This document shows, piece by piece, positions 3,724 through 64,000 of a stretch of DNA of 64,000 nucleotides; position 1 is the first letter of the stretch; every line of letters starts with the position of its first letter. Where the stretch lies: NCBI RefSeq assembly GCF_011045215.1, contig NZ_CP049201.1; one strand, written 5' to 3'. A program made the position numbers and the translations under genes. Source of the stretch: Escherichia coli (GTDB taxonomy: Bacteria > Pseudomonadota > Gammaproteobacteria > Enterobacterales > Enterobacteriaceae). The notes under the pieces were generated by a model that had not been told where the DNA came from, did no database searches, and saw nothing but the letters and a program-made list of their open reading frames with translations.

Positions 3724-4745
3724 CGACGATAGTCGCGGAACGGGCCGTCAGCCACGGAGCGGCGTTCAATCAAGCGCGGATGCACTTCAATGGACTGCGG
3801 TTCTTCACGTTTGTTGACTATACGATCCAACAACATGTTGAACGCTGTTTCACCCAGCGAATCTTTTGGCTGATGGATCGTGGTCAGCGCCGGCGTAAAA
3901 TAGCGGGCGTTGCGCACGTTATCATAACCAATCAGCGAAACATCCTGCGGGACGCGCAGCCCCATTTCATCAGCAGCACAAAGTGCGCCCATTGCCATGA
4001 TATCGCCACCACAGAAGACGGCAGTAGGGCGATGCGGCTGCGACAGGATTTGCTGCATGGCGCGATAACCGGATTCAGGTTCAAAGTCACCCTGCACAAT
4101 CCAGCTTTCCGGCACTTTGATCATCGCTTCTTCCATCGCCTTCATAAAACCGGCAAGGCGGCCTGCGCCGGTGTTACGTTCCAGCGGGCCGGGGATAACG
4201 CCGATTTCGCGGTGACCGCGTTCAATCAGATAACGCCCGGCCATGTAGCCGCCTTCGAACGCGTTATCAATGACCGCATCGGTGAAGTCAGCTTTTGCTT
4301 CACCCCAGTCCATCACCACCATTGGAATATGGCGATACTCTTCCAGCATCGCCAGCAACGGCTCTGGGTACTCAGAACACATCACCAGCAGACCATCGAC
4401 GCGTTTTTGCGCCATCATCGACAGATAAGCCCGCTGTTTCTCAAGATTGTTCCACGCATTGCCCAGAATCAGGGTGTAACCTTTCTGGAAGCAATTTTTT
4501 TCAACTGCTTCAATGATCTCGGCAAAATAGGCCGCTTCGCTGCTGGTCGCCAGCAAACCGATAGACTTGGTGTGGTTAACCTTCAGGCTACGCGCCACCG
4601 CGCTAGGGGAGTAGTGTAATTCTTTAATCGCTGCCCACACGGCGTTGCGCGTTTCTTCAGCGACGAAACGTGTTTTGTTGATCACGTGTGACACAGTTGT
4701 AGTGGAAACGTTTGCTCGTTTCGCTACATCTTTTATTGTTGCCAT
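3720..4745 (-). CDS. purR: purine repressor PurR (LacI family)
   Basis: 341-aa ORF beginning [24 protein letters not shown], recognised as PurR. Confidence 0.97.
4703..4718 (-). promoter_or_regulatory. PUR box (purR autoregulatory operator O2, inside coding region)
   Basis: Minus-strand GAGCAAACGTTTCC matches PUR-box core; position about 30-40 nt into purR ORF as expected for O2. Confidence 0.5.
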
Positions 4746-4788
4746 TCCATTTCACTCCAGACCCTAACTTCAGCTCCTGCAAAATCGC

Positions 4789-4806
4789 AAGGTAAACGTT
4801 TGCCTT
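4789..4806 (-). promoter_or_regulatory. PUR box (purR operator O1 in 5' leader)
   Basis: AAGGTAAACGTTTGCCTT, near-palindromic PUR-box core 44-61 nt upstream of purR ATG. Confidence 0.55.
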
Positions 4807-5043
4807 TACACACCTTACGCACAACAAAAGTGTTGCGGTACGCCGGAAAAACGACACGGAGCGTCAGGAAGGGGTCAATGGCCAGTACGCAAATAGTGTA
4901 AGCGTGGAATTTTGGCCGATCTTGACGAAAAGGGGAAGTGGTAAAAACACTTATCATTATAAATGACGGGAGATTTTTTCATCACAGTGTGTAAAAATGC
5001 GTAATATCACTTTTTGTGTGGTAATAAAAAAGGAGAAAACTTG

Positions 5044-5133
5044 ATGAGCACCGACCTTAAATTTTCACTGGTAACAACGATTATCGTCCTCGGTTTGATC
5101 GTGGCCGTGGGTTTGACTGCCGCGCTGCACTGA
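5044..5133 (+). CDS. ynhF: 29-aa small membrane protein YnhF
   Basis: ATG..TGA ORF translated by hand: MSTDLKFSLVTTIIVLGLIVAVGLTAALH; hydrophobic single TM; location purR-ydhP matches known ynhF. Confidence 0.8.
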   Translation: MSTDLKFSLVTTIIVLGLIVAVGLTAALH

Positions 5134-5298
5134 TTTCCTCTCGAGGGAGCGCGTTCTCCCTCGCATCTCCTTCCTGTTTGTTAGCAAAATGGCAAAAGTG
5201 TTTTCTCTTTTTGTTATTTTCATTTTTTTGTGATTGCTGTCATGCTTTCGCCACTTTAATGAATATCGCGTAATGACGCGAAGAGGTGGAGATAAGGC

Positions 5299-6468
5299 AT
5301 GAAAATTAACTATCCGTTGCTGGCGCTGGCGATTGGCGCGTTTGGTATCGGGACAACGGAGTTCTCGCCAATGGGCTTGTTGCCCGTCATTGCGCGCGGT
5401 GTGGATGTCTCGATTCCCGCTGCCGGAATGTTAATCAGTGCCTATGCAGTTGGCGTAATGGTGGGCGCGCCGCTGATGACGCTTCTACTTTCTCATCGTG
5501 CCCGCCGCAGTGCGTTGATTTTCCTGATGGCAATTTTCACGCTAGGCAACGTACTTTCCGCCATCGCGCCGGATTATATGACCCTGATGCTTTCACGCAT
5601 TTTGACCAGCCTGAATCACGGAGCATTTTTTGGTTTGGGTTCAGTCGTGGCCGCAAGCGTGGTGCCAAAACATAAACAGGCCAGCGCAGTTGCCACTATG
5701 TTTATGGGGTTAACCCTGGCAAATATCGGTGGCGTGCCGGCGGCGACCTGGTTGGGTGAAACCATCGGCTGGCGGATGTCATTTCTGGCAACGGCGGGGC
5801 TGGGAGTGATTTCAATGGTAAGTCTGTTCTTCTCATTACCTAAAGGTGGTGCAGGGGTACGACCTGAAGTGAAAAAAGAGCTGGCGGTATTAATGCGTCC
5901 GCAGGTGCTGTCTGCATTGCTGACGACGGTACTGGGAGCTGGTGCAATGTTTACTCTCTACACCTATATCTCTCCGGTACTGCAAAGTATTACCCACGCA
6001 ACACCGGTGTTCGTCACGGCAATGCTGGTGCTGATTGGTGTCGGATTCTCTATCGGTAACTATCTCGGCGGCAAACTGGCAGATCGTTCAGTTAACGGCA
6101 CGTTGAAAGGCTTTTTGTTGCTGCTGATGGTGATTATGCTGGCAATCCCGTTCCTGGCCCGCAATGAGTTCGGCGCAGCTATTAGCATGGTGGTGTGGGG
6201 CGCTGCAACCTTTGCGGTCGTACCGCCGTTACAGATGCGCGTGATGCGTGTCGCCAGTGAAGCGCCAGGTCTGTCTTCATCAGTCAATATTGGTGCCTTT
6301 AATCTTGGAAATGCGCTGGGAGCAGCTGCTGGTGGTGCGGTAATTTCCGCTGGGCTGGGATACAGCTTTGTGCCGGTGATGGGGGCGATTGTCGCGGGAC
6401 TGGCATTATTGCTGGTGTTTATGTCAGCCAGAAAACAACCTGAAACAGTTTGCGTTGCTAACAGCTAA
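5299..6468 (+). CDS. ydhP: MFS transporter YdhP
   Basis: 389-aa 12-TM ORF matching E. coli YdhP. Confidence 0.9.
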   Translation: MKINYPLLALAIGAFGIGTTEFSPMGLLPVIARGVDVSIPAAGMLISAYAVGVMVGAPLMTLLLSHRARRSALIFLMAIFTLGNVLSAIAPDYMTLMLSRILTSLNHGAFFGLGSVVAASVVPKHKQASAVATMFMGLTLANIGGVPAATWLGETIGWRMSFLATAGLGVISMVSLFFSLPKGGAGVRPEVKKELAVLMRPQVLSALLTTVLGAGAMFTLYTYISPVLQSITHATPVFVTAMLVLIGVGFSIGNYLGGKLADRSVNGTLKGFLLLLMVIMLAIPFLARNEFGAAISMVVWGAATFAVVPPLQMRVMRVASEAPGLSSSVNIGAFNLGNALGAAAGGAVISAGLGYSFVPVMGAIVAGLALLLVFMSARKQPETVCVANS

Positions 6469-6479
6469 TTAAACAAAAA

Positions 6480-6501
6480 CGCAGAAGGATAACCTTCTGC
6501 G
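6480..6501. terminator. bidirectional hairpin between convergent ydhP and sodB
   Basis: CGCAGAAGG-ATAA-CCTTCTGCG perfect 9-bp stem, A-run upstream and T-rich downstream. Confidence 0.6.
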
Positions 6502-6530
6502 TTACAGTTGCTGACAACGTGCGATTTATC

Positions 6531-6600
6531 TTGCCGAATGCGCTGTTAACGCCTCATCCGCGTTGGCATGGTAAGCGAAGCGTATCAGGCAATACTGCAT
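6531..6600. repeat. REP-like palindromic elements (degenerate REP pair)
   Basis: GCCGAATGCG...AACGCCTCATCCGC and GCCTGATACGCTTCGCTTACCATGCC (minus) resemble REP consensus; in convergent intergenic space. Confidence 0.45.
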
Positions 6601-6613
6601 TTGCCATCAGTTA

Positions 6614-7195
6614 TTATGCAGCGAGATTTTTCGCTACGAATTCCCAGTTCACCAGCGCCCAGAAGTGCTCAAGATAGCCAGGACGTGCATTGCGATAGTC
6701 GATGTAATATGCGTGTTCCCAGACATCAACGGTTAGCAGCGGAGTCGCATCGGTGGTCAGCGGAGTACCCGCGTTAGAGGTTGAAACGATAGCCAGTTTG
6801 CCATCGCTGTTTTTCACCAGCCAGGTCCAGCCAGAACCAAAGTTTTTGATCGCTGCATCAGTAAACTGAGCTTTGAAATCGGCAAAGCTGCCAAAAGATG
6901 CGGCGATAGCTTCAGCGACTTTTCCAGTCGGTTCGCCACCGGCGTTCGGTGCCAGGCAGTTCCAGTAGAAAGTATGGTTCCAGACCTGAGCTGCGTTGTT
7001 GAATACGCCACCTTCAGAGCTGCGAATAATCTCTTCCAGTGATTTACCTTCAAACGCGGTACCTTTGATCAGGTTGTTCAGGTTAGTGACATAAGTCTGA
7101 TGATGCTTGCCGTAGTGATACTCGATGGTTTCCGCAGAAATATGCGGTGCCAGAGCATCTTTAGCATATGGTAGTGCAGGTAATTCGAATGACAT
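6614..7195 (-). CDS. sodB: iron superoxide dismutase
   Basis: 193-aa [39 protein letters not shown], recognised as SodB. Confidence 0.97.
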
Positions 7196-7221
7196 TGCTA
7201 CTCTCCTTTATTATTAATTTG

Positions 7222-7251
7222 CATACGTACAATAGCCTTATTGTGCGTATG
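7222..7251 (-). promoter_or_regulatory. palindrome in sodB promoter/5' leader
   Basis: CATACGTACAATA-GCCT-TATTGTGCGTATG, 13-bp arms with 1 mismatch, 27-56 nt upstream of sodB ATG. Confidence 0.45.
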
Positions 7252-7322
7252 GATAGGGTAGCAAATTAAAAGGTGAGACAAAAGATGAACTTACCCTGTT
7301 GCCGTAACAACAGGGTAAAGTT

Positions 7323-8150
7323 TTAGCGAAGTGTTTTTGGGGTCATTACCCGGCGAGCGCCAACGTAGTGGCGCTGCCAGTAGTCTTCACTGAGAGAAGT
7401 GATTTGAATTTCCTGACCCGTACGCGGTGACTGAATAAATTTGCCGTTGCCGACATACACACCGACATGATCGGCTGTACCGCGTCCCTGAGTACGGAAA
7501 AAGACCAGGTCGCCGTTTTTCAGTTCACTACGTTCGATTGGCGCTGCATCACGCAGGTGATACATTTCATTCGCCGTACGCGGAATACGAATTTTTACCA
7601 AATCTTTATAAGCGTAATAAACCAGGCCGCTGCAATCAAAACCGGTACGCGGTGAGCTGCCACCCCAACGATATGGCTTACCAATTTGCTGCATCAGTTT
7701 ATTCATTGCCACTTTTGTGGCTTTTTGCACCTTCGCTTTGTGTGCGTCGGCAAGGGTTCCTGACGCGGCATTTTTGACTTTCACACAATGCGATTTATAG
7801 CCCTTACGTTTGGTACACTTTTCGGTAAAGCTGGCTGAGGCCGTTTTATTGACGGTATGTTTGCTGCGAGTTTTGGCGTTTTTAGAAGCGGTAATGGAAG
7901 ATTTTTTAACGGAAGAAGCGGTTTTGCTTTTGGTCGTACTTTTACTGGCGGCTTTTTTCGCTGTTTTCTGGCTGGCTTTCTGGGTCTTTTTGGTGGTTGC
8001 CGTGCTTTTCTTTTTATCTGCTTTTTTGGTGATATGAGTGGTAGCAGAACTCTCCCTGGCTTGCTTTGAAGCATGGGCCATAGGCGTTAAAGGCAGGGTG
8101 GTAAAAAGTAAAGCACAGAGCGTGATCGAAATACGGTTTATCCGCGCCAC
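7323..8150 (-). CDS. mepH: NlpC/P60 peptidoglycan DD-endopeptidase MepH
   Basis: 275-aa ORF (GTG start) with signal peptide, K/T/S-rich linker and C-terminal NlpC/P60 domain (GFDCSGLV); matches YdhO/MepH. Confidence 0.9.
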   Translation of the reverse strand: MARINRISITLCALLFTTLPLTPMAHASKQARESSATTHITKKADKKKSTATTKKTQKASQKTAKKAASKSTTKSKTASSVKKSSITASKNAKTRSKHTVNKTASASFTEKCTKRKGYKSHCVKVKNAASGTLADAHKAKVQKATKVAMNKLMQQIGKPYRWGGSSPRTGFDCSGLVYYAYKDLVKIRIPRTANEMYHLRDAAPIERSELKNGDLVFFRTQGRGTADHVGVYVGNGKFIQSPRTGQEIQITSLSEDYWQRHYVGARRVMTPKTLR

Positions 8151-8484
8151 TGAGCGTCCCTCTGTTAAGGCAGGTCTATCATGCCTGCGTCTGATTTACA
8201 AAACTTGATGATTCTAATGCATAGAAGAAGAGAAAGTTAATAGCTTTTATTGTTAAAAAATACGTTTCGTTGGCGAGCGCAAAAAAATGCAGCAGTGAAA
8301 GCTAAAAATGGTTATAAATACGCCAGTTTGCCGTGCATCAGGGAAGAAACGAATATTTGAAATGCAACAAATAGAGCAAAGGGATAAAATAGCAAAAGCG
8401 TGATGAAAATGTTATTTTCCGATGCCGCACTGACCCGCTACAATGTCAGATTACTGCCGTAAAGAAGTTTGAGGAAGCAAGACA

Positions 8485-8832
8485 ATGAGCACCACTATCG
8501 AAAAAATCCAACGCCAGATTGCTGAAAACCCGATCCTGCTGTACATGAAAGGTTCACCGAAACTGCCGAGCTGCGGTTTCTCTGCCCAGGCAGTACAGGC
8601 GCTTGCCGCATGTGGCGAACGTTTTGCCTATGTTGATATTCTGCAGAATCCGGACATTCGTGCGGAGCTGCCGAAATATGCTAACTGGCCGACCTTCCCG
8701 CAACTGTGGGTTGACGGCGAACTGGTCGGCGGTTGTGATATTGTGATCGAAATGTATCAGCGTGGCGAACTGCAGCAGCTGATCAAAGAAACTGCCGCTA
8801 AATACAAGTCTGAAGAGCCGGACGCGGAATAA
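8485..8832 (+). CDS. grxD: monothiol glutaredoxin Grx4
   Basis: 115-aa ORF with CGFS motif (PSCGFSAQ). Confidence 0.95.
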   Translation: MSTTIEKIQRQIAENPILLYMKGSPKLPSCGFSAQAVQALAACGERFAYVDILQNPDIRAELPKYANWPTFPQLWVDGELVGGCDIVIEMYQRGELQQLIKETAAKYKSEEPDAE

Positions 8833-8846
8833 TCCGTCCTGCAATA

Positions 8847-8874
8847 CTGACGGATGCGAACGGGCATCCGTCAG
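8847..8874 (+). terminator. hairpin downstream of grxD
   Basis: CTGACGGATGC-GAACGG-GCATCCGTCAG 11-bp stem directly after grxD stop; weak U-tract. Confidence 0.5.
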
Positions 8875-8882
8875 TCCTTTAT

Positions 8883-11800
8883 CTATCCCCAATCCAGCCC
8901 TTGTGGCGAACTTGAAAATCCCGCCTCACGCAGCAGCGTAAACATCGGCGTTTGCCGGACCGGTAGATCATTCACTTCTGTTAGCGTAAAGCGCAGCCGT
9001 GGTTCGCGACGCAGTGCGGTAGTCAGCGCGTGGAAAACCTCTGGGGCGAGTAATTCCTCTTTTTCCTGCCAGACCAGCATTTTTTTGCCACCTTGCGCCA
9101 GATAGAGTAACAATTTGCCGCCAGAAACGACCACCAGCGCACCCGCCCGACGCGTTGGTACCAGCGTTGCCGGATGTGCAGGCCAGGGCAGAAGATTTCC
9201 CCACACATTAGCCGGATCGTTGGCGGAGAGCGCCACTGGTGTATAGTGGCGCGTTTGCGCGGCTTGTGTCGCCAGGTCGCGCAAGCGGTCAATAGTCAGA
9301 CGTTCAGCGAATTGCGCGCCACCCAGACCTTCTACAAAACGACCTCGCATAATTCGCCCGGAGTCTTCCATACTTCGACAAAGCGTTTGCATCGATGGAA
9401 ACCCGCCAGGGATATTTTCGGCTATCACCGCCTGACGACTGATGATGCCGTAGCGGTCGAGCATATTTTCCGCCAGCGCCAGCATCCTTTCGGTATCGTT
9501 TAGTGGCTCCACCTGCAATAACGACCAGCGTCCAGCCAGATTTGGTGTGTTGTAAGATACCCGCGGCGAGACGGGTTGTGCATAGACAGGACGCCCACGA
9601 CGAGCCCGGTGACTGCGGCGAGTTGAGGTGCGTGCGTTGGAACTGCTGCGGGTGAGGGCGCGTAACGGTGCCCAAATATCGCTGGTGATGACGCCTTGCC
9701 AGACCAGCGCCCATAACGCCTCTTGCAGTGCCGAGGGATCAACCGATTCGCCGATTTTGTCGCGTATCCGTTGGCTGATTTGTTGTGCAAACCAGGCTCC
9801 TCCGTCAGCCAGAACAGCGACTATCGCTTGTTGCAGCGCCGAACGATTCGCCTGATCCGCTTCGGCGGGAGTGAACGATTCTGCAGCATATTCCTGTAGA
9901 TGCAGTGCCACCAGGCCGTCATCTTCACCCAGTTTTTTTTGCCCCGACCAGATAACCGCACCGGTTGCCAGTAATTCATCGAGCATTTCTGGCGAATAGT
10001 CGCGTACGCGGGCAGGCAGGATCTGGCTTTCCCAGAGTGAGGCGGGTAAGCCGACTCCGGCAAGCTGTTCGATTACCCGCATCACGCCATCTACGCCCTC
10101 ATAAACGCCTGGCGATGTTGAGGCAAAGAGCGCCGGGCTACCATCGGTGGCGGGTAATACGCCCTGACGTTCCAGCAGCAATCGCGCATAGGTCGTGGCT
10201 GCAACGGGACGCGTCGCTTCTCTGGCGGCTTGCAGCGAGCGCAAACGCAGACGACGAAATACTTCATCGCTCACCCAGATGTCTTGTTGCAGATTCATCA
10301 CCAGACCCTGTTCGCGCAGTTGCTGAAGCTGCTCTTCGACAATGGCAATACCGAGACTAAACTCATGAGCCAGTTGTTCAGCCGTGACCAGAGCATGAGC
10401 CCGGAGATAGCGCAGAAAGAGGTCGCGAAGCGGGTAACTGACTCTATGCAAATAAATCTCTGGCAGAGACTCTGGTAGTTGTACGCCGAGGGCATCGCGC
10501 AGCCTGGCGGCATCATCCATACAGGCAAGACGCTCCTGTCCGCTAATCATCGCCGGGAAGATTCGTTTTACTGTAAGAAGATTTTCCAGATACGACGCAA
10601 TCTCTTCACTGCTGCCTGTATGCCGTTGCGCCAGGTCTTCAACGGTCATTGGCCCCAGTTCGCGCAGCAGGTCGAACAATCCTTCTTCACCTTTCGCTCT
10701 TCTGCCAGGAGCCAGTCGTTGCAACTCTTCTTCCACCTGGCGAATGACCTGCGGGTCGAGTAATTCCCCGGATCGACCTGTCCGAGTAGATTGCGCAGTA
10801 ACTCGCTGTCCAGCGACAGTACGGATGCCCGGCGCTCTGCCAGCGGGGCGTCGCTCTGGTACATAAATTCCGCGACATAGCCGAACAATAAACTTGTGGC
10901 GAAAGGCGAGGGCGTAGTAGTCGTTACATCGGATATTTGAATTTCGCCACCGTTCAGGCGACGCATCAAACGTTCCAGTGCGGGAAGATCATAAACATCT
11001 TGCAGACATTCGCGTAGGGTTTCGAGAATGACCGGAAAATCCGGATATCCCTGAGCGATTTCCAGCAACTGACTGGCGCGCAGCCGTTGTTGCCAGAGCG
11101 GGGTGCGATGGCCCGGCGTGCGGCCCGGCATTAATAACGCCCGCGCGGCGCATTCGCGAAAACGGGCGGCGAAAAGTGCTGAGCTGCCTACCGCCTCGCG
11201 GACAATTTGCAGCAACTTTTCTGGTTCAAACAAAAAAATCGCGGCGTCGGGCAATTTACCATCAGTGTCAGGAATGCGCGCAACAATGCCGTCATCACTG
11301 GCGACCACAGACGCGTCAGCGCCCCATAGCGCATGTATTCGCCCGGCAATCGCCAGCGCCCAGGGTTCATGCACCCGTCTTCCATAGGGAGAGTGCAAAA
11401 TAATACGCCAGTCGCCAATTTCATCACGGCACCGTTCGAGGACCAGATGACGACTCCCCGGAACGATGCCCGTCGCGTTGCGCTGCTCGTCAATCAACCC
11501 CTGAATATTGGCGATCGTATTTTCTTCAGCCAGCCACGGGGGAATAGTCCCGGAAAAGAACGCGCCATCCGCCAGTAAATGAAGAAAATCGCCGATCATC
11601 TCGCCTAATTCAGCCGGACGTCCGTTACCTTCACCACGCCAGAAGGGGAGCCGGGCAGAACGACCCGGAGCAGGAGTCACAATCACCTGATCGCGGGTGA
11701 TTTGCTGTATCCGCCATGAGGTAGCGCCGAGAGTGATAATGTCGTTCACCCGCGACTCATATACCATCTCCTCATCCAGTTCACCCACCCGCCGCGAACC

Positions 11801-53650: not shown

Positions 53651-55297
53651 ATGTCAAACAAACCCTTTCATTATCAGGCTCCTTTTCCACTCAAAAAAGA
53701 TGATACTGAGTATTACCTGCTAACCAGCGAACACGTTAGCGTATCTGAATTTGAAGGGCAGGAGATTTTGAAAGTCGCACCCGAAGCGTTAACTCTGTTG
53801 GCGCGTCAGGCGTTTCATGATGCGTCGTTTATGCTGCGTCCGGCGCACCAACAACAGGTGGCCGACATTCTGCGTGACCCGGAGGCCAGCGAAAATGATA
53901 AATATGTGGCGCTGCAATTCCTGCGTAACTCCGACATCGCGGCGAAAGGCGTTCTGCCAACCTGTCAGGATACCGGCACCGCGATTATTGTTGGTAAAAA
54001 AGGGCAGCGTGTATGGACCGGTGGTGGTGATGAAGCGGCGCTGGCACGCGGTGTCTATAACACTTATATCGAAGATAATCTGCGCTACTCGCAAAACGCG
54101 CCGCTGGATATGTATAAAGAAGTGAATACTGGCACCAATCTGCCAGCGCAGATCGATCTTTATGCCGTTGATGGCGACGAATACAAATTCCTCTGTATCG
54201 CCAAAGGTGGTGGTTCGGCAAACAAGACGTATCTCTATCAGGAAACCAAAGCGTTACTGACGCCGGGGAAACTGAAAAATTACCTGGTTGAGAAGATGCG
54301 CACGCTGGGTACGGCGGCCTGTCCTCCGTATCATATTGCGTTCGTTATTGGTGGAACTTCTGCAGAAACGAACCTTAAAACGGTGAAACTGGCTTCCGCG
54401 AAATACTATGATGAACTGCCAACGGAAGGGAATGAGCACGGTCAGGCGTTCCGCGATGTGGAACTGGAAAAAGAATTGCTGATCGAAGCGCAAAATCTTG
54501 GTCTGGGTGCGCAGTTTGGTGGTAAATACTTCGCTCACGACATCCGCGTGATTCGCCTGCCACGTCACGGCGCATCCTGCCCGGTCGGTATGGGCGTCTC
54601 CTGTTCTGCTGACCGTAATATCAAAGCGAAGATCAACCGTCAGGGGATCTGGATCGAAAAACTGGAACATAATCCAGGCAAATATATCCCGGAAGAGCTG
54701 CGCAAAGCGGGAGAAGGCGAAGCGGTGCGCGTTGACCTTAACCGTCCGATGAAAGAGATCCTCGCACAGTTGTCGCAGTATCCCGTTTCTACACGCTTAT
54801 CGCTTAACGGCACGATTATCGTCGGTCGTGATATTGCTCACGCCAAACTGAAAGAGCGGATGGATAACGGTGAAGGGCTGCCGCAGTACATCAAAGATCA
54901 TCCGATTTACTACGCGGGTCCGGCCAAAACGCCGGAAGGTTATGCCTCCGGTTCTCTTGGCCCAACGACCGCCGGACGGATGGATTCTTATGTCGATCAA
55001 CTGCAAGCGCAGGGCGGAAGTATGATCATGCTGGCGAAAGGCAACCGCAGCCAGCAGGTGACGGATGCCTGTAAAAAACACGGCGGCTTCTACCTTGGCA
55101 GTATCGGTGGTCCGGCCGCTGTATTGGCGCAGGGAAGTATTAAGAGCCTGGAATGTGTTGAATATCCGGAACTGGGAATGGAAGCCATCTGGAAAATTGA
55201 AGTGGAAGATTTCCCGGCGTTTATCCTTGTGGATGATAAAGGAAATGACTTCTTCCAGCAGATACAACTCACACAATGTACCCGCTGTGTGAAATAA
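53651..55297 (+). CDS. fumA: class I fumarate hydratase (aerobic, Fe-S)
   Basis: 548-aa ORF matching FumA. Confidence 0.96.
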
Positions 55298-55302
55298 ACA
55301 GA

Positions 55303-55327
55303 GCCGCCCTTCGGGGCGGTTTTTTTA
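55303..55327 (+). terminator. rho-independent terminator after fumA
   Basis: GCCGCCC-TTCG-GGGCGGT followed by T7. Confidence 0.8.
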
Positions 55328-55439
55328 CATGGCACGAAAGACCAAACATTTGTTATCAAATAGTAAATAATGAGTGAGCTAAAAGTTGCTTAACGAAAGC
55401 AAAACAGAAAGAAAAAATTAATCAGGTGAGGAGCAGGCC

Positions 55440-57803
<2,364 letters not shown>

Positions 57804-57844
57804 TATAGCACAGTGGTGGTGACTTGACCACCGTGCGCGTAGTG

Positions 57845-59146
57845 TCAAGCAGAGGTAAATTGCGGGATGTTATGCCATAACGGCCAGCTAAACGAGAAGC
57901 GGGCACCACCCAGTTCGCTGGTGTCACAATTAACCGTACCGCCCATTGCCAGTGCTATAGAGTGGACAATTGCCAGCCCCAGCCCGCAGCCGCCGGTTGA
58001 GCGATCCCGGCTGGGATCGAGGCGAACAAAAGGTTCAAAGATATGTTCGCGGTTTTCTGGGGCAATCCCTGGGCCATCATCCTCAACAATTAATGTCGCT
58101 CTATTCCCCGACAGTAGCAGGCTGGTTTCAACCGTTGAATGGCAGTAGCGCAGGGCGTTATTGAGCAAATTATCCAGCACACGCTCCATTAAGCGCATAT
58201 CCAACGCCGCATAATGGCCTTGCGCGAGCGTTTTTATCCGTACCGTTTTATCGGGCGTTACTGCCTGAATGTCTGCCAGATGCGTTGACAGCCACAACGG
58301 CAGGTCTGGTTCGCTAAGATGAAGCTCGTTTTGTGGGCGATCGAGTCGGGCATAAGTCAGCAGCTCTTCAATTAAAGCTTCAAGTTGACTGATATCACGA
58401 TTCAACGCCTGGGATTCGGCGGCGCTCAGGTTATCGCTCATCTCCAGTCGATAACGCAGGCGCACTAACGGTGTTCGCAGTTCGTGTGCAATACCGTCAA
58501 TAAGCTGTTTTTTGCTGGCTATCAAGGCGTTGATATTGTCCGCCATCTGGTTAAATGCGACGCCAAGGCGTTCAAAGCTCGAACCCTCATCAAAGTGGAT
58601 ACGTTCATTGAGATGCCCATCGCCAAATCGTTGCGCCGCAGCTTCCAGTTTTAACATATCCTGCCAGTGCGGACGCATCCAGATAAACACCGGAAAGGCG
58701 AGGGAAATGGCAATAAAAGCGATCAGGGCGATATCCAGCAATCGCATCTGATGGAGGTAATAAAGATAAGGAACAGGACCAACTGCCAGCACGTAGTGGC
58801 TGCGCGGGATACGTTGCAAAAACGTGTACTGATCGTCCAGGGCGACAATTTCGCCGCCACGCAGTCGGTGCATGGAAATATCATCAAGATGGTATTTACT
58901 CAGTGGCTCGACACGCAGATCGAAAGAGAGATTTAAATCCATCTCTTTCAGCGTCTTACCCCAGTCGTGTGGGGGGATCTCACGCAATTCGCTGCGCATC
59001 AGATACAGCGAACTGTTCATCAAATCATCCAGCGACTGTTTGCCCGCGCGTTCGGCGGTAAATTTGTACACCAGCCCAACCAGCAGAGACATCACAAGGA
59101 AGCAGACAAACAATAACAGGTAAAACTGGATAAACAATTTTTTCAT
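57845..59146 (-). CDS. rstB: sensor histidine kinase RstB
   Basis: 433-aa frame from ATG at 59146 (MKKLFIQFYLLLFVCFLVMSLL), HAMP/HisKA/HATPase. Confidence 0.95.
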   Translation of the reverse strand: MKKLFIQFYLLLFVCFLVMSLLVGLVYKFTAERAGKQSLDDLMNSSLYLMRSELREIPPHDWGKTLKEMDLNLSFDLRVEPLSKYHLDDISMHRLRGGEIVALDDQYTFLQRIPRSHYVLAVGPVPYLYYLHQMRLLDIALIAFIAISLAFPVFIWMRPHWQDMLKLEAAAQRFGDGHLNERIHFDEGSSFERLGVAFNQMADNINALIASKKQLIDGIAHELRTPLVRLRYRLEMSDNLSAAESQALNRDISQLEALIEELLTYARLDRPQNELHLSEPDLPLWLSTHLADIQAVTPDKTVRIKTLAQGHYAALDMRLMERVLDNLLNNALRYCHSTVETSLLLSGNRATLIVEDDGPGIAPENREHIFEPFVRLDPSRDRSTGGCGLGLAIVHSIALAMGGTVNCDTSELGGARFSFSWPLWHNIPQFTSA

Positions 59147-59176
59147 TGGCATCGCCCGCAACAGAATACTATTCGT

Positions 59177-59205
59177 ATTAATTCACGACTGTGGAGCAAT
59201 GTAAA
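59177..59205 (-). promoter_or_regulatory. candidate sigma70 promoter for rstB (TTTACA-N17-ATTAAT)
   Basis: Minus strand -35 TTTACA (59205-59200), 17-nt spacer, -10 ATTAAT (59182-59177), about 30 nt upstream of rstB ATG; prediction only. Confidence 0.3.
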
Positions 59206-59324
59206 CCGCCAACTGGATAAGGCCTTGTTTGGAAGATAATGTCCGGAACAGACGGATGTATCCCCGGCGTATTCATATTCAGTAAATTCAATTTTCCACC
59301 GGGGCTTGTTTATTATGCTAAGGT

Positions 59325-60668
59325 TTAATTTAACGTGACGCTTTGTTGTTCTTTAGTCTCTCTATCCTTAAGAAGACGGGCTGATATTACACCGGACATC
59401 ATTGAACCATTCACATTAAGCGCTGTTCTTGCCATATCAACGATCGGCTCTATGGCAATAAAAATACCCACTAATGCGACAGGGAAATTAAGTGTTGAAA
59501 GGACAATCAGCGCCGCGAATGTCCCACCACCACCTACGCCTGCTACCCCTATTGAGCCAAGCGCGATGGCAGGTAAAAGAGTAGCGAGGAATTGCAATGA
59601 GAAGGGATCGATACCCATTGTTGGAGCAATTATCGCCACCATCACGGCAGGATAAATCCCAGCGCAGCCATTTTGTCCCATGTTGGAACCAAAAGACGCT
59701 GCAATATTAGCAATCGTATTTGGAACCCCCAATTTTTCCAATGCAGAAATAGCCAGAGGAATTGAAGCCGCACTACTGCGAGAAACAAACGCAAAGGTAA
59801 GTACTTGCCAGACGGTCTTGTAATAGTTAACGGGGTTTTTACCTATTAACAGCAAAATGCCCGAGTGAACAATAAACATCACAAAAACGGCCAGATAACA
59901 GGCGACGATGAACCCGAGCAAATTGGTAAACTGTGAAAGCTGATACGTTGAGAAGACTTTCGCCATTAGTGCCATTACCCCATAAGGCGTCAGCGCAATG
60001 ACAATACGGACCATTTTCATTACCCATATTTGAATCGCGTTGATCCCCGCGCTCAATTTTTCGCCCTCTGCTGGTGCATCTTTCTTTACTTTTAACAGCG
60101 CAATACCAGCAAGAATTGTAAAGATGACGATGCCAATAACCGAAACACTTCTTGCCCCGGTCAGATCAAGGAAGAGGTTGGTTGGGATCAATGACGTAAT
60201 GAGTCGCGGTAAAGATACCGCAGCTGTTTTCGAGACGTCATCGCTGGTTAAAGAGGATTGCATATGACCAAAGGCGCTGGCATCAAGGCCAATTGCACTG
60301 GCAATAGCCAGGCCAACTAAACCTGCAATCATGACTAAACACAACATACAGGCAACAATAGTTAAAGACATCTTGCCAATACCAGCGCTATTTTCGAGCT
60401 TATTAATCGCTGAAAGAATAGAAATGAATATGAGTGGAACGGCAACAAGTTTTAATAAATTAACATAACCGTTACCAGCAATATTATACCATTCGATAAC
60501 GGTTTCACTGTTTGTCTCAGGAATGAAATGCAGGGAGATACCAATGATAGCCCCCAGGAAAATCGCGATAAAAACACTTTTGGAAAGGGATTCGCTCTTT
60601 TGATCCGTTTTGAAAATCCCCCATGAGCAGATCAAAAAAAGCACAATATATGTGAAAGTTGTAACCAT
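59325..60668 (-). CDS. DAACS-family (sodium:dicarboxylate symporter superfamily) transporter, YdjN/TcyP-like; absent from this position in K-12
   Basis: 447-aa polytopic ORF, ATG at 60668 with AGAGG upstream; shares motifs with E. coli YdjN/TcyP as recalled (W(Y/F)NI(A/V)GNGYV, LTFAF(V/T)SRSSAASIPL, FG(S/A)xxGQNGCAG, GVAGVGGG(G/A)TFAALIV); substrate not inferable. Confidence 0.85.
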   Translation of the reverse strand: MVTTFTYIVLFLICSWGIFKTDQKSESLSKSVFIAIFLGAIIGISLHFIPETNSETVIEWYNIAGNGYVNLLKLVAVPLIFISILSAINKLENSAGIGKMSLTIVACMLCLVMIAGLVGLAIASAIGLDASAFGHMQSSLTSDDVSKTAAVSLPRLITSLIPTNLFLDLTGARSVSVIGIVIFTILAGIALLKVKKDAPAEGEKLSAGINAIQIWVMKMVRIVIALTPYGVMALMAKVFSTYQLSQFTNLLGFIVACYLAVFVMFIVHSGILLLIGKNPVNYYKTVWQVLTFAFVSRSSAASIPLAISALEKLGVPNTIANIAASFGSNMGQNGCAGIYPAVMVAIIAPTMGIDPFSLQFLATLLPAIALGSIGVAGVGGGGTFAALIVLSTLNFPVALVGIFIAIEPIVDMARTALNVNGSMMSGVISARLLKDRETKEQQSVTLN

Positions 60669-60722
60669 TTTTTAAGCCTCTTGCCTCATTCAGCACCTGA
60701 AATGCCGGAAAGAGTTTGTTGT

Positions 60723-60747
60723 AAAAAATCTGCGCCATAAGACGCAG
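60723..60747 (-). terminator. hairpin plus U-run between rstA and the inserted transporter gene (rstA terminator or leader attenuator)
   Basis: Minus strand CUGCGUC-UUAU-GGCGCAG followed by AUUUUUU; a TATAAT hexamer (60763-60758) lies just upstream. Confidence 0.45.
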
Positions 60748-60880
60748 GGACGAGGCGATTATAGAGAAATTTTTTCTCATATTCACATCAAATGTAGGGG
60801 GGTTGGAATTTGAATAAGCTCTTATTAATTGAATTCGTTAATTGTTCTCTTTTTCAGATGAACAAATATTAGTCATCTGA

Positions 60881-61612
60881 TTATTTATTGTCACTATCCC
60901 ATGCATGAGGCGCAAAAAGATAGCCTTTGTTACGCACGGTTTTAATGCGATAAGGTTCTGCGGCGTTATCGAGCAGTTTTTTTCTTAACCGCGAAATAGC
61001 CACGTCCACGCTACGATCCAGTCCGTCATAACTGACGCCGCGTAAATTTTTCAGCAATGCATCGCGGTCCATGATTTGCCCGGCATGGGTAGCTAATTCC
61101 CACAATAATTCGAAATCAGCTGTTGAGAGCGAGATTTCAGTGTTAGCCAGGGTGACTACGCGGTTGATAGGATCGATGGTCAACGTGCCGAAATGCAGGG
61201 CTTTGTAGGGAGTCAGAGACGTTTCCTGAAGACCTTTGGTCAGTGTGGCTTGCTCATTCTGACGCAAATGCAAACGTAAACGCGCTAGCAAAACAGCAGG
61301 GGGCGTCGTTTTGAGAATATAGTCGCAGGCACCCATTTCCAGTGCCAGGATGTGGTTCATATCGCTATCGAGAGAGGTTAGAAGAACAATCGGTCCAGAC
61401 CACTTTGCGCGTAAATCACGACAAATGGTCATGCCGTCCTTGCCTGGTAGCATGATGTCGAGTAACACCAAATCCGGATTTTCTCGCAAAATGGTTTCTT
61501 CGGCATGGTCGCCGCGCGGCTCTACGGTAACCTGCATATCATGTTTTGCCAGGTACGCGGCAATCAGTGAACCGACTTCCGCATCATCTTCCACAAATAC
61601 GATAGTGTTCAT
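60881..61612 (-). CDS. rstA: OmpR-family response regulator RstA (C-terminus differs from K-12 as recalled)
   Basis: Frame from ATG at 61612 (MNTIVFVEDDAEVGSLIAAYL), receiver plus winged-helix domains; ends ...APHAWDSDNK. Confidence 0.92.
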   Translation of the reverse strand: MNTIVFVEDDAEVGSLIAAYLAKHDMQVTVEPRGDHAEETILRENPDLVLLDIMLPGKDGMTICRDLRAKWSGPIVLLTSLDSDMNHILALEMGACDYILKTTPPAVLLARLRLHLRQNEQATLTKGLQETSLTPYKALHFGTLTIDPINRVVTLANTEISLSTADFELLWELATHAGQIMDRDALLKNLRGVSYDGLDRSVDVAISRLRKKLLDNAAEPYRIKTVRNKGYLFAPHAWDSDNK

Positions 61613-61658
61613 AACATTCACGGTAGATATAAAAACGTCACAATACACCGCGCTGTTT

Positions 61659-61675
61659 TTACTTACTATCAATCG
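61659..61675 (-). promoter_or_regulatory. putative PhoP box in rstA promoter
   Basis: Minus strand TGTTTA-GAAAC-GATTGA about 50-65 nt upstream of rstA ATG; rstA is PhoP-activated by established knowledge; second half-site is weak. Confidence 0.35.
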
Positions 61676-61740
61676 TTTCTAAACAAGTTTTCATCAGGTA
61701 TTCTACTGATGACTTGTTATGGAAGTGTTAAGGTAAAAAG

Positions 61741-62076
61741 ATGGGGCTGGTAATCAAAGCCGCGCTCGGTGCGCTGGTAGTGCTGTTGATTGGTGTTTTA
61801 GCAAAAACGAAAAATTATTATATCGCCGGGCTGATTCCACTTTTCCCGACCTTTGCGCTTATCGCGCATTATATTGTTGCCAGCGAACGCGGCATTGAAG
61901 CCTTACGCGCAACCATCATTTTTAGTATGTGGTCGATTATTCCCTATTTTGTTTACCTGGTGTCGCTGTGGTATTTCACCGGAATGATGCGCTTGCCCGC
62001 CGCTTTTGTTGGTTCTGTTGCGTGTTGGGGGATAAGCGCATGGGTGTTGATTATATGCTGGATAAAGCTGCATTAA
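61741..62076 (+). CDS. ydgC: GlpM-family inner membrane protein YdgC
   Basis: 111-aa hydrophobic ORF. Confidence 0.88.
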   Translation: MGLVIKAALGALVVLLIGVLAKTKNYYIAGLIPLFPTFALIAHYIVASERGIEALRATIIFSMWSIIPYFVYLVSLWYFTGMMRLPAAFVGSVACWGISAWVLIICWIKLH

Positions 62077-62795
62077 CGCAGATGACGACCGCCATCAAGT
62101 GGGAAACTGCGTCCGGTGACAAAGCAACTGGTAAGTAAGTAATCGACCAGGTCGATCACTTCTTTCTCGCCAGGCGCGGTTTTCATCAGTGATTTATTCA
62201 GCGCCTGTTGTCGATATTCGGCATCATCATGTTCATTAAACAGGATCAGCGATGGCGCAATAGAATTCACTTTCACTTCCGGTGCCAGCTTGCGGGCAAA
62301 CGAGCGGGTCATATTATCCAGTGCCGCTTTGCTTGCAGCATACGCAATATGTTTGTCGCTACCGCGCTCCACCACATAATCGGTAAAGTGAATGATATCG
62401 CTGGCGGCGTGTCCGTGCCCACGCAGTAATCTTTCCAGCGCATGGTTGAGCAGGTATGGGGTATTAACGTGGATCTGCATCATGCAAGCCAGTACGTCGG
62501 CCAGTGGCGCACCCGGTTTTTCCGCCATCCACGCACTGGCGTTATGCAAAATAGCACGCAGACCATGGGTGCTTTTTAGTACTTCATCGGCAAACGCCAT
62601 CACACCGTCGTTGGTCGAAAAATCAGCCTGAATACACTGCGCACCTGCATTAATCAGTCCATCAATGGCTGGATAGTGAGTCCGATAGCTGACAATCACC
62701 GGTTGCTTTTGATTAATGAAATGCCATGCGAGGGCGAGGCCGATGCGACGACCTCCGCCAGTAATTAATATTGGCAAGGGCTGGGTTTTACCCAT
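62073..62795 (-). CDS. folM: dihydromonapterin reductase / alternative DHFR (SDR)
   Basis: 240-aa SDR ORF, 4-nt convergent overlap with ydgC. Confidence 0.93.
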   Translation of the reverse strand: MGKTQPLPILITGGGRRIGLALAWHFINQKQPVIVSYRTHYPAIDGLINAGAQCIQADFSTNDGVMAFADEVLKSTHGLRAILHNASAWMAEKPGAPLADVLACMMQIHVNTPYLLNHALERLLRGHGHAASDIIHFTDYVVERGSDKHIAYAASKAALDNMTRSFARKLAPEVKVNSIAPSLILFNEHDDAEYRQQALNKSLMKTAPGEKEVIDLVDYLLTSCFVTGRSFPLDGGRHLR

Positions 62796-62831
62796 CGTTA
62801 TCTCCTTTGCTATCCAACGATGGGATGAACG

Positions 62832-64000
62832 TTATCCCACCAGCATCCAGGTCGCCGGAACTGAGGCAATTAACAGCATGCCAATCAGCACCATTTCCTG
62901 ACGGTTCAGTACATTATCATGTGTATGCGTTTTGCGCGCATACAGGAAAACCAGCAGCCCCGGTGCATACAGAACAACGGATAACAGCAAGTGCATTGGA
63001 CCAGAGGCGTACAATAACCATAAGCCATAAATGCAGGCACCGACACCTACCGCTTTATGCAGTGGACGGGTTGCGATTTTCAGCAAGAACGCGCCGACCA
63101 GGAAATAGGGCACCAGAATCATTTCTGAGGCGATGGTCAGCAACGTGTTGTAATCGGAACCGGTCAGCCAGATGAGTACCAGACAAATTTGCACGCAGAT
63201 GTTGGTCAACCACAGTGAGGCGGATGGCGCAGCTTGTGCGTTCTGGCGCGCAAAAATGCGTGGGAATGCTTTATGGGTGGCAGCCAGGAACGGAACTTCT
63301 GCCGCCATGATGGTCCAGCTTAAGTACGCGCCGCAAACGGAAACGATCAAACCGGCAGCGATGATGATTTCGCCCCATGGTCCCATCATTTCCACCATCA
63401 GACCGGCCATTGACGGGTTACGAATTTCAGCCAGTTCAGGACGTGCCACCACACCCAGCGAAAGCAGCGTTACCAGCAAGTAAACGCCCAGAGCGGAGAG
63501 AACCGCCAGCAGTGTCGCTTTGCCAACATCACGTTTATTGCGCGCACGCGCAGAAACAACCACGGCACCTTCCACACCAATGAAAACCCACAGGGTGATC
63601 AGCATGGTGTTTTTCACCTGTTCCCAAACAGGTACGCCAAGTGCAAGTCCGGTGAAGTCGAGCTTGAAGGTATCCAGTTTGAACATCATCATCGCCAGCA
63701 CAACAAACAGACCCAGCGGCAACAATTTTGCCAGTGTCGCCACCAGGTTAATGCTGGCAGCGGTTTGCACCCCGCGCAGGATCAAAAAGTGAACAATCCA
63801 CAATAAAGCCGATGCACCGACTATCGATTGCCAGGTATTACCATCGCCAAACAGGCGCAATTCCGGCGTGTCCGTAAAAAAGCTTAACGCGGAAAAAACG
63901 ATCACCAGATAGGAGACGTTGGCGATGACTGCGCACAGCCAGTATCCCCATGCGGAACAAAAGCCGATTAGCTCGCCAAACCCTTCGCGGGCATAGGTAA
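62832..64000 (-). CDS. ydgI: APC-family arginine:ornithine antiporter-like YdgI (partial, 5' end beyond window)
   Basis: Polytopic ORF with stop at 62832; frame appears open to the window edge; K-12 YdgI is 460 aa so the N-terminal part is off-window. Confidence 0.8.
   Translation of the reverse strand, partial: TYAREGFGELIGFCSAWGYWLCAVIANVSYLVIVFSALSFFTDTPELRLFGDGNTWQSIVGASALLWIVHFLILRGVQTAASINLVATLAKLLPLGLFVVLAMMMFKLDTFKLDFTGLALGVPVWEQVKNTMLITLWVFIGVEGAVVVSARARNKRDVGKATLLAVLSALGVYLLVTLLSLGVVARPELAEIRNPSMAGLMVEMMGPWGEIIIAAGLIVSVCGAYLSWTIMAAEVPFLAATHKAFPRIFARQNAQAAPSASLWLTNICVQICLVLIWLTGSDYNTLLTIASEMILVPYFLVGAFLLKIATRPLHKAVGVGACIYGLWLLYASGPMHLLLSVVLYAPGLLVFLYARKTHTHDNVLNRQEMVLIGMLLIASVPATWMLVG

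Follow-up and report, generated by a model that had tools for sequence, protein, structure and literature searches.

A Transporter Gene between rstA and rstB in Escherichia coli and Shigella flexneri, Probably Inserted Together with Its Own Promoter and Leader

In a stretch of 64,000 nucleotides (nt) of Escherichia coli DNA (contig NZ_CP049201.1, assembly GCF_011045215.1; hereafter the window) the two-component genes rstA and rstB are parted by a gene for a transporter of 447 amino acids (aa), for which X is used here as a shorthand. The rstA-rstB pair is usually treated as a tight two-gene operon. According to the reading that we prefer, and to which we assign a probability of about 60%, X is a derived insertion: a self-contained unit, composed of a promoter, a structured leader and the gene of a cation symporter paralogous to TcyP, would have been acquired at rstA-rstB by means of homology in the flanking genes.

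Structure and Limits of the Insert

The original prediction, made from the letters of the window, had described a gap of 1734 nt between rstA and rstB holding a transporter gene of 447 aa in the same orientation, and the coordinates of the open reading frames (ORFs) agree with it (Table 1). The distance from the rstA stop to the rstB start is 1,734 nt in the window vs. 3 nt in a K-12-type genome, so that the adjacency of the two genes in K-12 had been stated correctly; they are adjacent in 5,419 of the 5,426 complete RefSeq E. coli genomes analyzed, a collection from which Shigella was excluded.

To set the limits of the insert, we compared the window base by base with K-12, a non-carrier E. 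coli, a sister Escherichia lineage of 91% identity and 15 other carriers. In gene orientation the junction reads CATGGGA-ATAAGCG-ATGAAAAAA in K-12 and CATGGGA-[TAGTGAC ... GCGATGCCA]-ATGAAAAAA in the window. The breakpoint on the rstA side lies within codon 239, where GA-A becomes GA-T; the insert supplies the third base of this codon (60896) and the last four codons of rstA with the stop (60881-60895). Because RstA reads into the insert from inside codon 239, its C-terminus is ...HAWDSDNK instead of the ...HAWE of K-12, and the junction does fall in the last rstA codons, as had been supposed.

Identical junctions are shared by 15 of the 16 carriers. The exception is NZ_OZ197100.1, the sole carrier among the complete RefSeq E. 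coli genomes. Here four additional bases (TAAG when read along the genes) follow the end of the insert and precede the rstB ATG, recreating the ATAAG of K-12; they either remained from the first insertion junction or arose by a later change. The rstA and rstB genes of the carriers are 98.4-99.4% identical to those of K-12, and the RstB proteins have the Pfam HAMP, HisKA and HATPase_c domains. Compared with 5,419 of the 5,420 complete E. coli genomes that match, the insert stands out as a discrete indel, and a chance pattern can be dismissed.

The G+C content of X is 43.5%, with a G+C content at third codon positions (GC3) of 0.42, while rstB has 50.9% (GC3 0.56) and rstA 48.6%; the GC3 of rstA, rstB and tus is 0.50-0.56, above that of X. 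The lower G+C content of X than of rstB had been noticed before, though the hand-counted values (46% and 55%) were rough. Of the two flanks then described as strongly AT-rich, the upstream one (60669-60886, 35% G+C) is so indeed, while the downstream one (59147-59324, 43.8%) is no more AT-rich than X.

The window contains no ORF of a transposase or integrase, no tRNA was found in a search of positions 54000-64000, and the insert has neither terminal inverted repeats, flanking direct repeats nor a target-site duplication; dedicated repeat and tRNA scans and the ORF list bear out what had been seen by eye. The marks of an integrase-mediated island (tRNA or att site, integrase gene, direct repeats) and, within the window, those of a transposon or insertion sequence (IS) (transposase or IS, terminal inverted repeats, target duplication) are absent. 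An IS200/IS605-like element, an integron cassette and a miniature inverted-repeat transposable element were considered as well and rejected, no terminal structures, core sites or repeats being found. The insert end TGGCATCGCC was likened by eye to the terminus of IS1, a match too short to be meaningful.

The sister Escherichia lineage (91.3% DNA identity to K-12), K-12 and a non-carrier E. coli all read TGGGAATAAGCGATGAAAAAA at the junction. The rstA-rstB site of E. fergusonii is also empty, with a spacer of 12 nt, and TGGGAATAA is the end of rstA in Kluyvera, E. fergusonii and MGYG-HGUT-00110 too. Because the sister lineage and E. fergusonii are empty and TGGGAATAA ends rstA in Kluyvera as well, the empty junction is shown to be ancestral in Escherichia and the filled allele to be derived by insertion. 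No GTDB species representative of Escherichia carries X.

Table 1. Features of the rstA-X-rstB locus and plasmid copies of X. Coordinates refer to the window unless a plasmid is named.
Feature	Position	Strand	Remarks
Inserted block	59147-60896	minus	1,750 nt, in place of 7-nt ATAAGCG of the empty rstA-rstB site
X	59325-60668	minus	TcyP-subfamily SDF/DAACS transporter, 447 aa
X-rstB spacer	59147-59324	minus	178 nt; no convincing terminator, no significant structure
rstA	60881-61612	minus	243 aa; apart from the insert-derived end 99.4% identical to K-12 rstA
rstB	57845-59146	minus	433 aa, intact, typical E. coli sequence from ATG onward; 98.7% identical to K-12
tus	56840-57781	minus	
Candidate regulator site	60784-60795	minus	Degenerate copy of palindrome-like ACAnTTTTTGTrTG, upstream of -10
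-10 box TATAAT of X promoter	60758-60763	minus	In 19/20 aligned orthologs; one TAGAAT
Leader hairpin 1 and U-tract	60723-60747	minus	Hairpin 60730-60747, then U-tract 60723-60729; terminator scan; terminator- or attenuator-like
Invariant leader block CTCTTTCCGGCATTTCAGGTGCTGAATGAGGCAAGAGGC	60676-60714	minus	39 nt; includes Shine-Dalgarno (60677-60682)
IS1-bracketed X	NZ_CP025625.1 (pBOKZ_020007) 3753-6942		
ISKpn26-bracketed X	pMB06021 5952-9573		Plasmid of seawater E. coli; inverted ISKpn26 copies; window 59318-60841

The Transporter and Its Probable Substrate

The proposed membership of X in the DAACS family was checked with the Pfam profile SDF (PF00375), and the match is full-length: residues 28-431 of X correspond to model positions 1-386 of 387 (E = 9.3e-96). 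The relation to E. coli TcyP (YdjN), a cystine/sulfocysteine:cation symporter, was also well founded, with 46% identity and 69% positives over the full length (E = 6e-125). The two proteins share motifs in helical hairpins 1 and 2 (HP1 and HP2) and in transmembrane segments 7 and 8 (TM7 and TM8). Both have the blocks SRSSAAS, ASFG..GQNGCAG.YPA, GVAGVGGG.TFAA and EP..DM.RTALNV, invariant across 13 members, which separate TcyP from the other SDF transporters (GltP, DctA, SstT). X belongs to a clade of 445-448-aa proteins of Salmonella, Citrobacter, Kluyvera and Klebsiella aerogenes, which are 77-85% identical, while the identity of this clade to true TcyP proteins is 44-48%. Judged by its sequence, X is a member of the TcyP subfamily of SDF/DAACS transporters and a paralog of E. 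coli TcyP/YdjN. It is not an ortholog of tcyP: it occupies a different locus, encodes 447 aa instead of 463, falls in a separate clade and has an unrelated upstream region.

The aspartate transporters GltPh and GltTk, whose structures are solved, are of the same fold family as X (E = 1e-25 to 3e-36), and the HP1 serines and the Asp, Arg, Thr and Asn of TM8 are conserved. The HP1 motif SRSSAAS of X aligns with RSSSGT of GltPh and DMARTALN with D394-M-G-R397-T-M-V-N401; the substrate-site residues Asp394, Arg397, Thr398 and Asn401 are all conserved in X. Unlike in these transporters, the TM7 motif NMDGT of the glutamate/aspartate branch is replaced in X by GQNGC and the equivalent of Asp405 is Ser, and therefore both the cation coupling and the substrate of X probably differ from theirs. 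The same GQNGC is found in E. coli TcyP; thus it marks the TcyP branch and does not exclude X from the SDF superfamily.

Akin to X is the STM1368-type transporter of Salmonella, encoded between sufA and ydiH/rydB. It is an ortholog of X (77% aa identity) with the same promoter, hairpin and invariant block, and databases name it 'L-cystine transporter'. It differs from X in its chromosomal site and in being core in Salmonella (a cluster of 3,333 sequences), while X is accessory in E. coli. A literature search on STM1368 gave no functional study; one paper mentions the gene merely as a neighbor of rydB.

L-cystine or a related sulfur amino acid is the most likely substrate to be imported by X, if the relationship to TcyP is a guide. 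Less probable, though to be taken seriously, is another substrate: an acidic amino acid, a C4-dicarboxylate, another sulfur compound, or serine/threonine. The identity of X to the characterised TcyP is only 46%, and its clade (~447 aa) is separate and lacks the 6-residue loop insertion and the C-terminal tail of TcyP. X also keeps the equivalents of GltPh Asp394, Arg397 and Asn401 for binding of amino acids or carboxylates, and its genomic neighbors are variable and not consistently sulfur-related. Nevertheless, X has every motif that separates TcyP from GltP, DctA and SstT, including GQNGC for NMDGT, and its scores with the NCBIfam equivalogs of these three proteins (104, 87 and 74 bits) are far under the cut-offs (638, 513 and 308). 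Some of the neighbors are sulfur-related after all, namely the suf operon in Salmonella and a methionine aminotransferase gene in K. aerogenes.

Route of Entry

To learn where else X occurs, we compared 16 X loci, with one genome per species, and a set of 19 metagenome contigs. X lies between rstA and rstB in nine of the 16 loci, which belong to four Kluyvera species, four Citrobacter species and one gut Enterobacteriaceae isolate, and an RstA ortholog is encoded just upstream of X in nine of the 19 contigs. The rstA-X spacer of the window aligns with that of Citrobacter across the promoter, the hairpin and the leader, and the RstA proteins of Citrobacter and Salmonella also have C-terminal tails of 4-6 aa. 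On either side the insert extends precisely to where rstA and rstB homology stops (codon 239 and the base before the rstB ATG). As in an allelic replacement, the same gene is present at the same locus in relatives and the insert ends where the flanking homology ends. This synteny, the position of the limits and the lack of mobile-element hallmarks make a homology-guided swap the simplest reading.

The donor would be an unsampled enterobacterial relative which already had rstA (with a tail), X and rstB in this order. Recombination in the homologous rstA and rstB on either side would have brought the segment in, and E. coli sequence would afterwards have taken the place of any imported flanks, as far as the edge of the non-homologous block. 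The copies of X on plasmids, described below, would be secondary captures by IS elements.

We also considered whether the RstA tail DSDNK is a homolog of the Citrobacter tail DDEPRK. The MAFFT alignment was suggestive, the first 85-95 nt of the insert had no convincing match, and this likeness was not relied on. The orphan flanks of the insert (59147-59324 and ~60770-60896) were searched for in other genera, E. coli genomes and plasmids, and nothing was found beyond the carriers.

Several points weigh against the homology-guided acquisition of X. Among 5.8 billion proteins, the GTDB species genomes and the JGI metagenomes, the closest X protein from outside Escherichia is 85% identical, and no donor was identified. 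The rstA and rstB flanks are typical of E. coli, with no donor-derived single-nucleotide polymorphisms (SNPs), so that the route is deduced from position only. The extra TAAG of NZ_OZ197100.1 is easier to explain by a clean non-homologous insertion than by a swap. It should also be mentioned that the left end of the IS1-bounded plasmid segment equals, to the base, the insert end at the rstB ATG, which the proposed route leaves as chance. Finally, the substrate is taken solely from the 46% identity to TcyP and from database names.

Copies of X on Conjugative Plasmids

The X segment was found with an identity of 99.3-99.5% on conjugative plasmids of E. coli, Shigella and Klebsiella, and the plasmid X protein sequence is also recorded from Salmonella. 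In 12 plasmids of the IncB/O/K/Z type and related ones, X is located between inverted copies of IS1 and the segment covers the window from 59147 to ~60800; on another plasmid it is bracketed by ISKpn26 (examples of both in Table 1). Both captured segments retain the entire promoter, leader and gene of X. Bracketed in this way, by inverted IS1 or ISKpn26, the plasmid copies are like composite transposons of IS1 and IS5-family elements, though target duplications are lacking there. The window copy is free of IS elements and of a target duplication, and its flanks are longer.

The SNPs among the copies of X were polarised against 19 orthologs. The IS1 copy groups with the S. flexneri haplotype and is free of its degenerative changes, which fits a capture in an IS1-rich Shigella lineage. 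The ISKpn26 copy retains two ancestral alleles lost from all other copies, and these hint at an unsampled reservoir.

The coincidence at position 59147, where the inner end of IS1 meets the X segment exactly at the chromosomal insert end, is explicable only by chance or by an insertion hot spot, and it keeps alive a rival in which the plasmids came first. A fragment of an IS1-bounded unit, ending at the inner IS1 end, would then have joined the chromosome by illegitimate recombination. The boundary is the same on all 12 plasmids, and neither IS1 copy has a target duplication, which suggests that the units have been rearranged; a reservoir outside the sampled chromosomes and a junction in NZ_OZ197100.1 that resembles a clean insertion would also suit this origin. 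We nevertheless regard it as unlikely. The chromosomal copy reaches 60896 on the rstA side, 55-96 nt beyond the plasmid forms (60841 and ~60800), and is therefore not derived from these particular units. No IS remnant is left in the chromosome, and a random illegitimate insertion is not expected at the very locus where X is native in other genera. The grouping of the IS1 copy with the haplotype of S. flexneri, an IS1-rich host, fits the opposite direction, from chromosome to plasmid.

Promoter, Leader and Regulation of X

The upstream regions of 20 X orthologs from all genera and chromosomal contexts were aligned. One layout was revealed in all 20: ACAnTTTTTGTrTG is followed by TATAAT, by a hairpin with a U-rich tract and by a 39-nt block (Table 1), and a good -35 box is missing throughout. 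The block has the consensus CTCTTTCCGGCATTTCAGGTGCTGAATGrGGCAAGAGGC and is near-identical in the 20 orthologs. An exact 22-mer of it was detected in 19 metagenome contigs, in all 19 about 40 nt before an X-type ORF. The sequence of hairpin 1 varies between genera while its position is kept, and RNAalifold predicts nine pairs, all with compensatory double changes across 16 orthologs. Hairpin 2 is invariant and shows no covariation; in it, CUCUU pairs with AAGAG of the Shine-Dalgarno sequence. The leader of the window folds with -29.2 kcal/mol (z = -2.3).

Because it never varies, the 39-nt block could be either an RNA element or a DNA operator. No trace of the leader is present upstream of E. 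coli tcyP. A scan against Rfam 15 gave no match for the leader, the one hit being to a miRNA, at the level of chance (E = 0.74) and within the coding sequence, and identification of the leader as a riboswitch or other known RNA was set aside. We can only tentatively suggest, and consider it rather doubtful, that the 5' region of X is an undescribed cis-regulatory element (an RNA that acts like a riboswitch or is bound by a protein, or else an operator of unusual length, in which the block can hide the ribosome-binding site) and that the insertion has also changed RstB expression in all S. flexneri.

In the spacer between X and rstB, the terminator scan revealed only a weak 5-bp hairpin; the fold has a z of -0.6 and the spacer has no homolog in other genera. 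Since nothing terminator-like separates the two genes, rstB is plausibly transcribed by read-through from X. In the acquisition that we propose, X would be transcribed from its own, probably activator-dependent, promoter and controlled through the leader, while rstB, no longer directly after rstA, would probably be expressed by read-through from X and/or rstA.

The original prediction had suggested that X could be co-regulated with the PhoP/RstA circuit. X would then belong to the rstAB operon, with the PhoP-dependent promoter of rstA driving its transcription, and would serve the low-Mg2+/acid response. It is true that X is oriented like rstA and rstB, that no strong terminator stands between X and rstB, and that the rstA-X order recurs in several genera, which could reflect selected linkage. 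Yet a terminator-like hairpin lies between rstA and X, and the -10 box, the hairpin with its U-tract and the invariant block are kept where X stands beside sufA (in Salmonella) or beside genes for a porin, ecdBCD/mutS or methionine aminotransferase. A search for the RstA box (TACATNTNGTTACA) with up to 3 mismatches gave 44 matches in the window vs. 42 expected, none of them upstream of X, and control of X through such a box was rejected, the matches being at the level of chance. The suggestion is unsupported, and we hold membership of X in the operon to be quite improbable; X appears to bring its own control along, conserved in every genomic context.

Variability of the rstA-rstB Region in Enterobacteriaceae

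Inserted genes part rstA and rstB in Kluyvera, Citrobacter and Salmonella too, and in Citrobacter X directly follows rstA, whose product has a short tail, as in the window. These islets differ from the window in having extra genes (a Ni/Co transporter, an APH(6)-like kinase, a hydrolase, PhzF or arginase family; a porin in Salmonella), while in E. coli and Shigella the islet consists of X alone. In the Citrobacter islets, a gene for a HoxN/NixA-family nickel/cobalt transporter and one for an APH(6)-like phosphotransferase lie between X and rstB on the opposite strand. In Salmonella enterica subsp. diarizonae, the place after rstA (244 aa, tail DETTTE) is taken by genes for a porin and an amidohydrolase instead of rstB. 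The rstA and rstB genes of E. fergusonii are only ~74% identical in DNA to those of E. coli. The whole rstA-rstB neighborhood seems to be unusually variable among enterics.

It is highly improbable that the filled allele is the ancestral one in Escherichia and that a 1.75-kb deletion, which then spread within the species, gave rise to the K-12-type adjacency, for although X has diverged from its Citrobacter and Kluyvera orthologs (80-85% aa identity) about as much as RstA (79.5-83.5%) and RstB (78-88%), is syntenic with them, and the filled allele equals the empty one plus one contiguous block, the sister lineage has the exact K-12 junction including the GCG spacer, E. fergusonii is empty, a deletion would have to recreate TGGGAATAA by chance, X is absent from all the Escherichia representatives and its GC3 (0.42) is well under the values of its neighbors. 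The sister-lineage junction had by itself largely refuted this reading, and together with TGGGAATAA in Kluyvera and E. fergusonii it rules out that K-12 is a deletion derivative, a possibility that the original prediction had left for checking.

Occurrence and State of X in E. coli and S. flexneri

Among the complete RefSeq E. coli genomes the filled arrangement was found in one of 5,426, a Dutch environmental isolate, and a few draft genomes also have it. The exact X protein of the window is encoded on 14 E. coli contigs, one of them a 5.4-Mb chromosome. In the assembly collection, 7,375 indexed blocks contain the X protein in its S. flexneri form, and at every S. flexneri locus examined X sits between rstA and rstB. 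The filled arrangement is rare in E. coli proper and present in thousands of S. flexneri assemblies, where it is the normal state; together with its being native to other genera, this answers which lineages carry the insert. It has long been visible in public annotation: in the S. flexneri reference strains 301 and 2457T, X is annotated as 'putative transporter'. A literature search on split rstA/rstB in Shigella found no paper discussing it.

The core flank of the window (36000-58800) is at most 98.9% identical to any of the 5,426 complete E. coli genomes. As none reaches 99%, the lineage of the source strain is poorly represented among complete genomes.

In the window copy of X the ATG is the ancestral one, the Shine-Dalgarno sequence and all motifs are present, and two substitutions, S329N and M346I, are private. 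In S. flexneri, the start codon ATG, present in 19 of 19 orthologs, is changed to ACG (window-equivalent 60667), and three further substitutions affect ortholog-invariant sites: G380S in the invariant HP2 loop GVGGGG, G401V and M423I (window-equivalents 59531, 59467 and 59400). In one S. flexneri sublineage, 24 nt of X are duplicated in tandem and in frame (VGLAIASA) at window-equivalent ~60293, and another variant has a deletion of seven residues in the same repeat-prone segment (direct repeat 60286-60329). The S. flexneri copies of X appear to be decaying, which fits the general gene loss in Shigella. In addition, the rstA stop TAA is changed to CAA (window-equivalent 60883), giving a RstA of 247 aa.

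Significance

The rstA-rstB pair is split by a transporter gene in every S. flexneri examined and in rare E. coli. This overturns nothing in the current understanding: X at rstA-rstB is an ordinary accessory-gene polymorphism, the transporter is of a known family, and the DNA that follows rstA varies from one member of the Enterobacteriaceae to another. That two different IS pairs have independently captured the same gene on conjugative plasmids suggests that the transporter can be of use at times.

The finding bears on the transfer of K-12 RstAB regulation to Shigella, where RstA has a longer tail (eight extra C-terminal residues in S. flexneri, four in the window) and rstB is not directly downstream. 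The dedicated, strongly conserved leader of X is a candidate for a new sulfur- or amino-acid-responsive control. Experiments would be most worthwhile on this leader and on the way in which rstB expression may have been rewired in S. flexneri.

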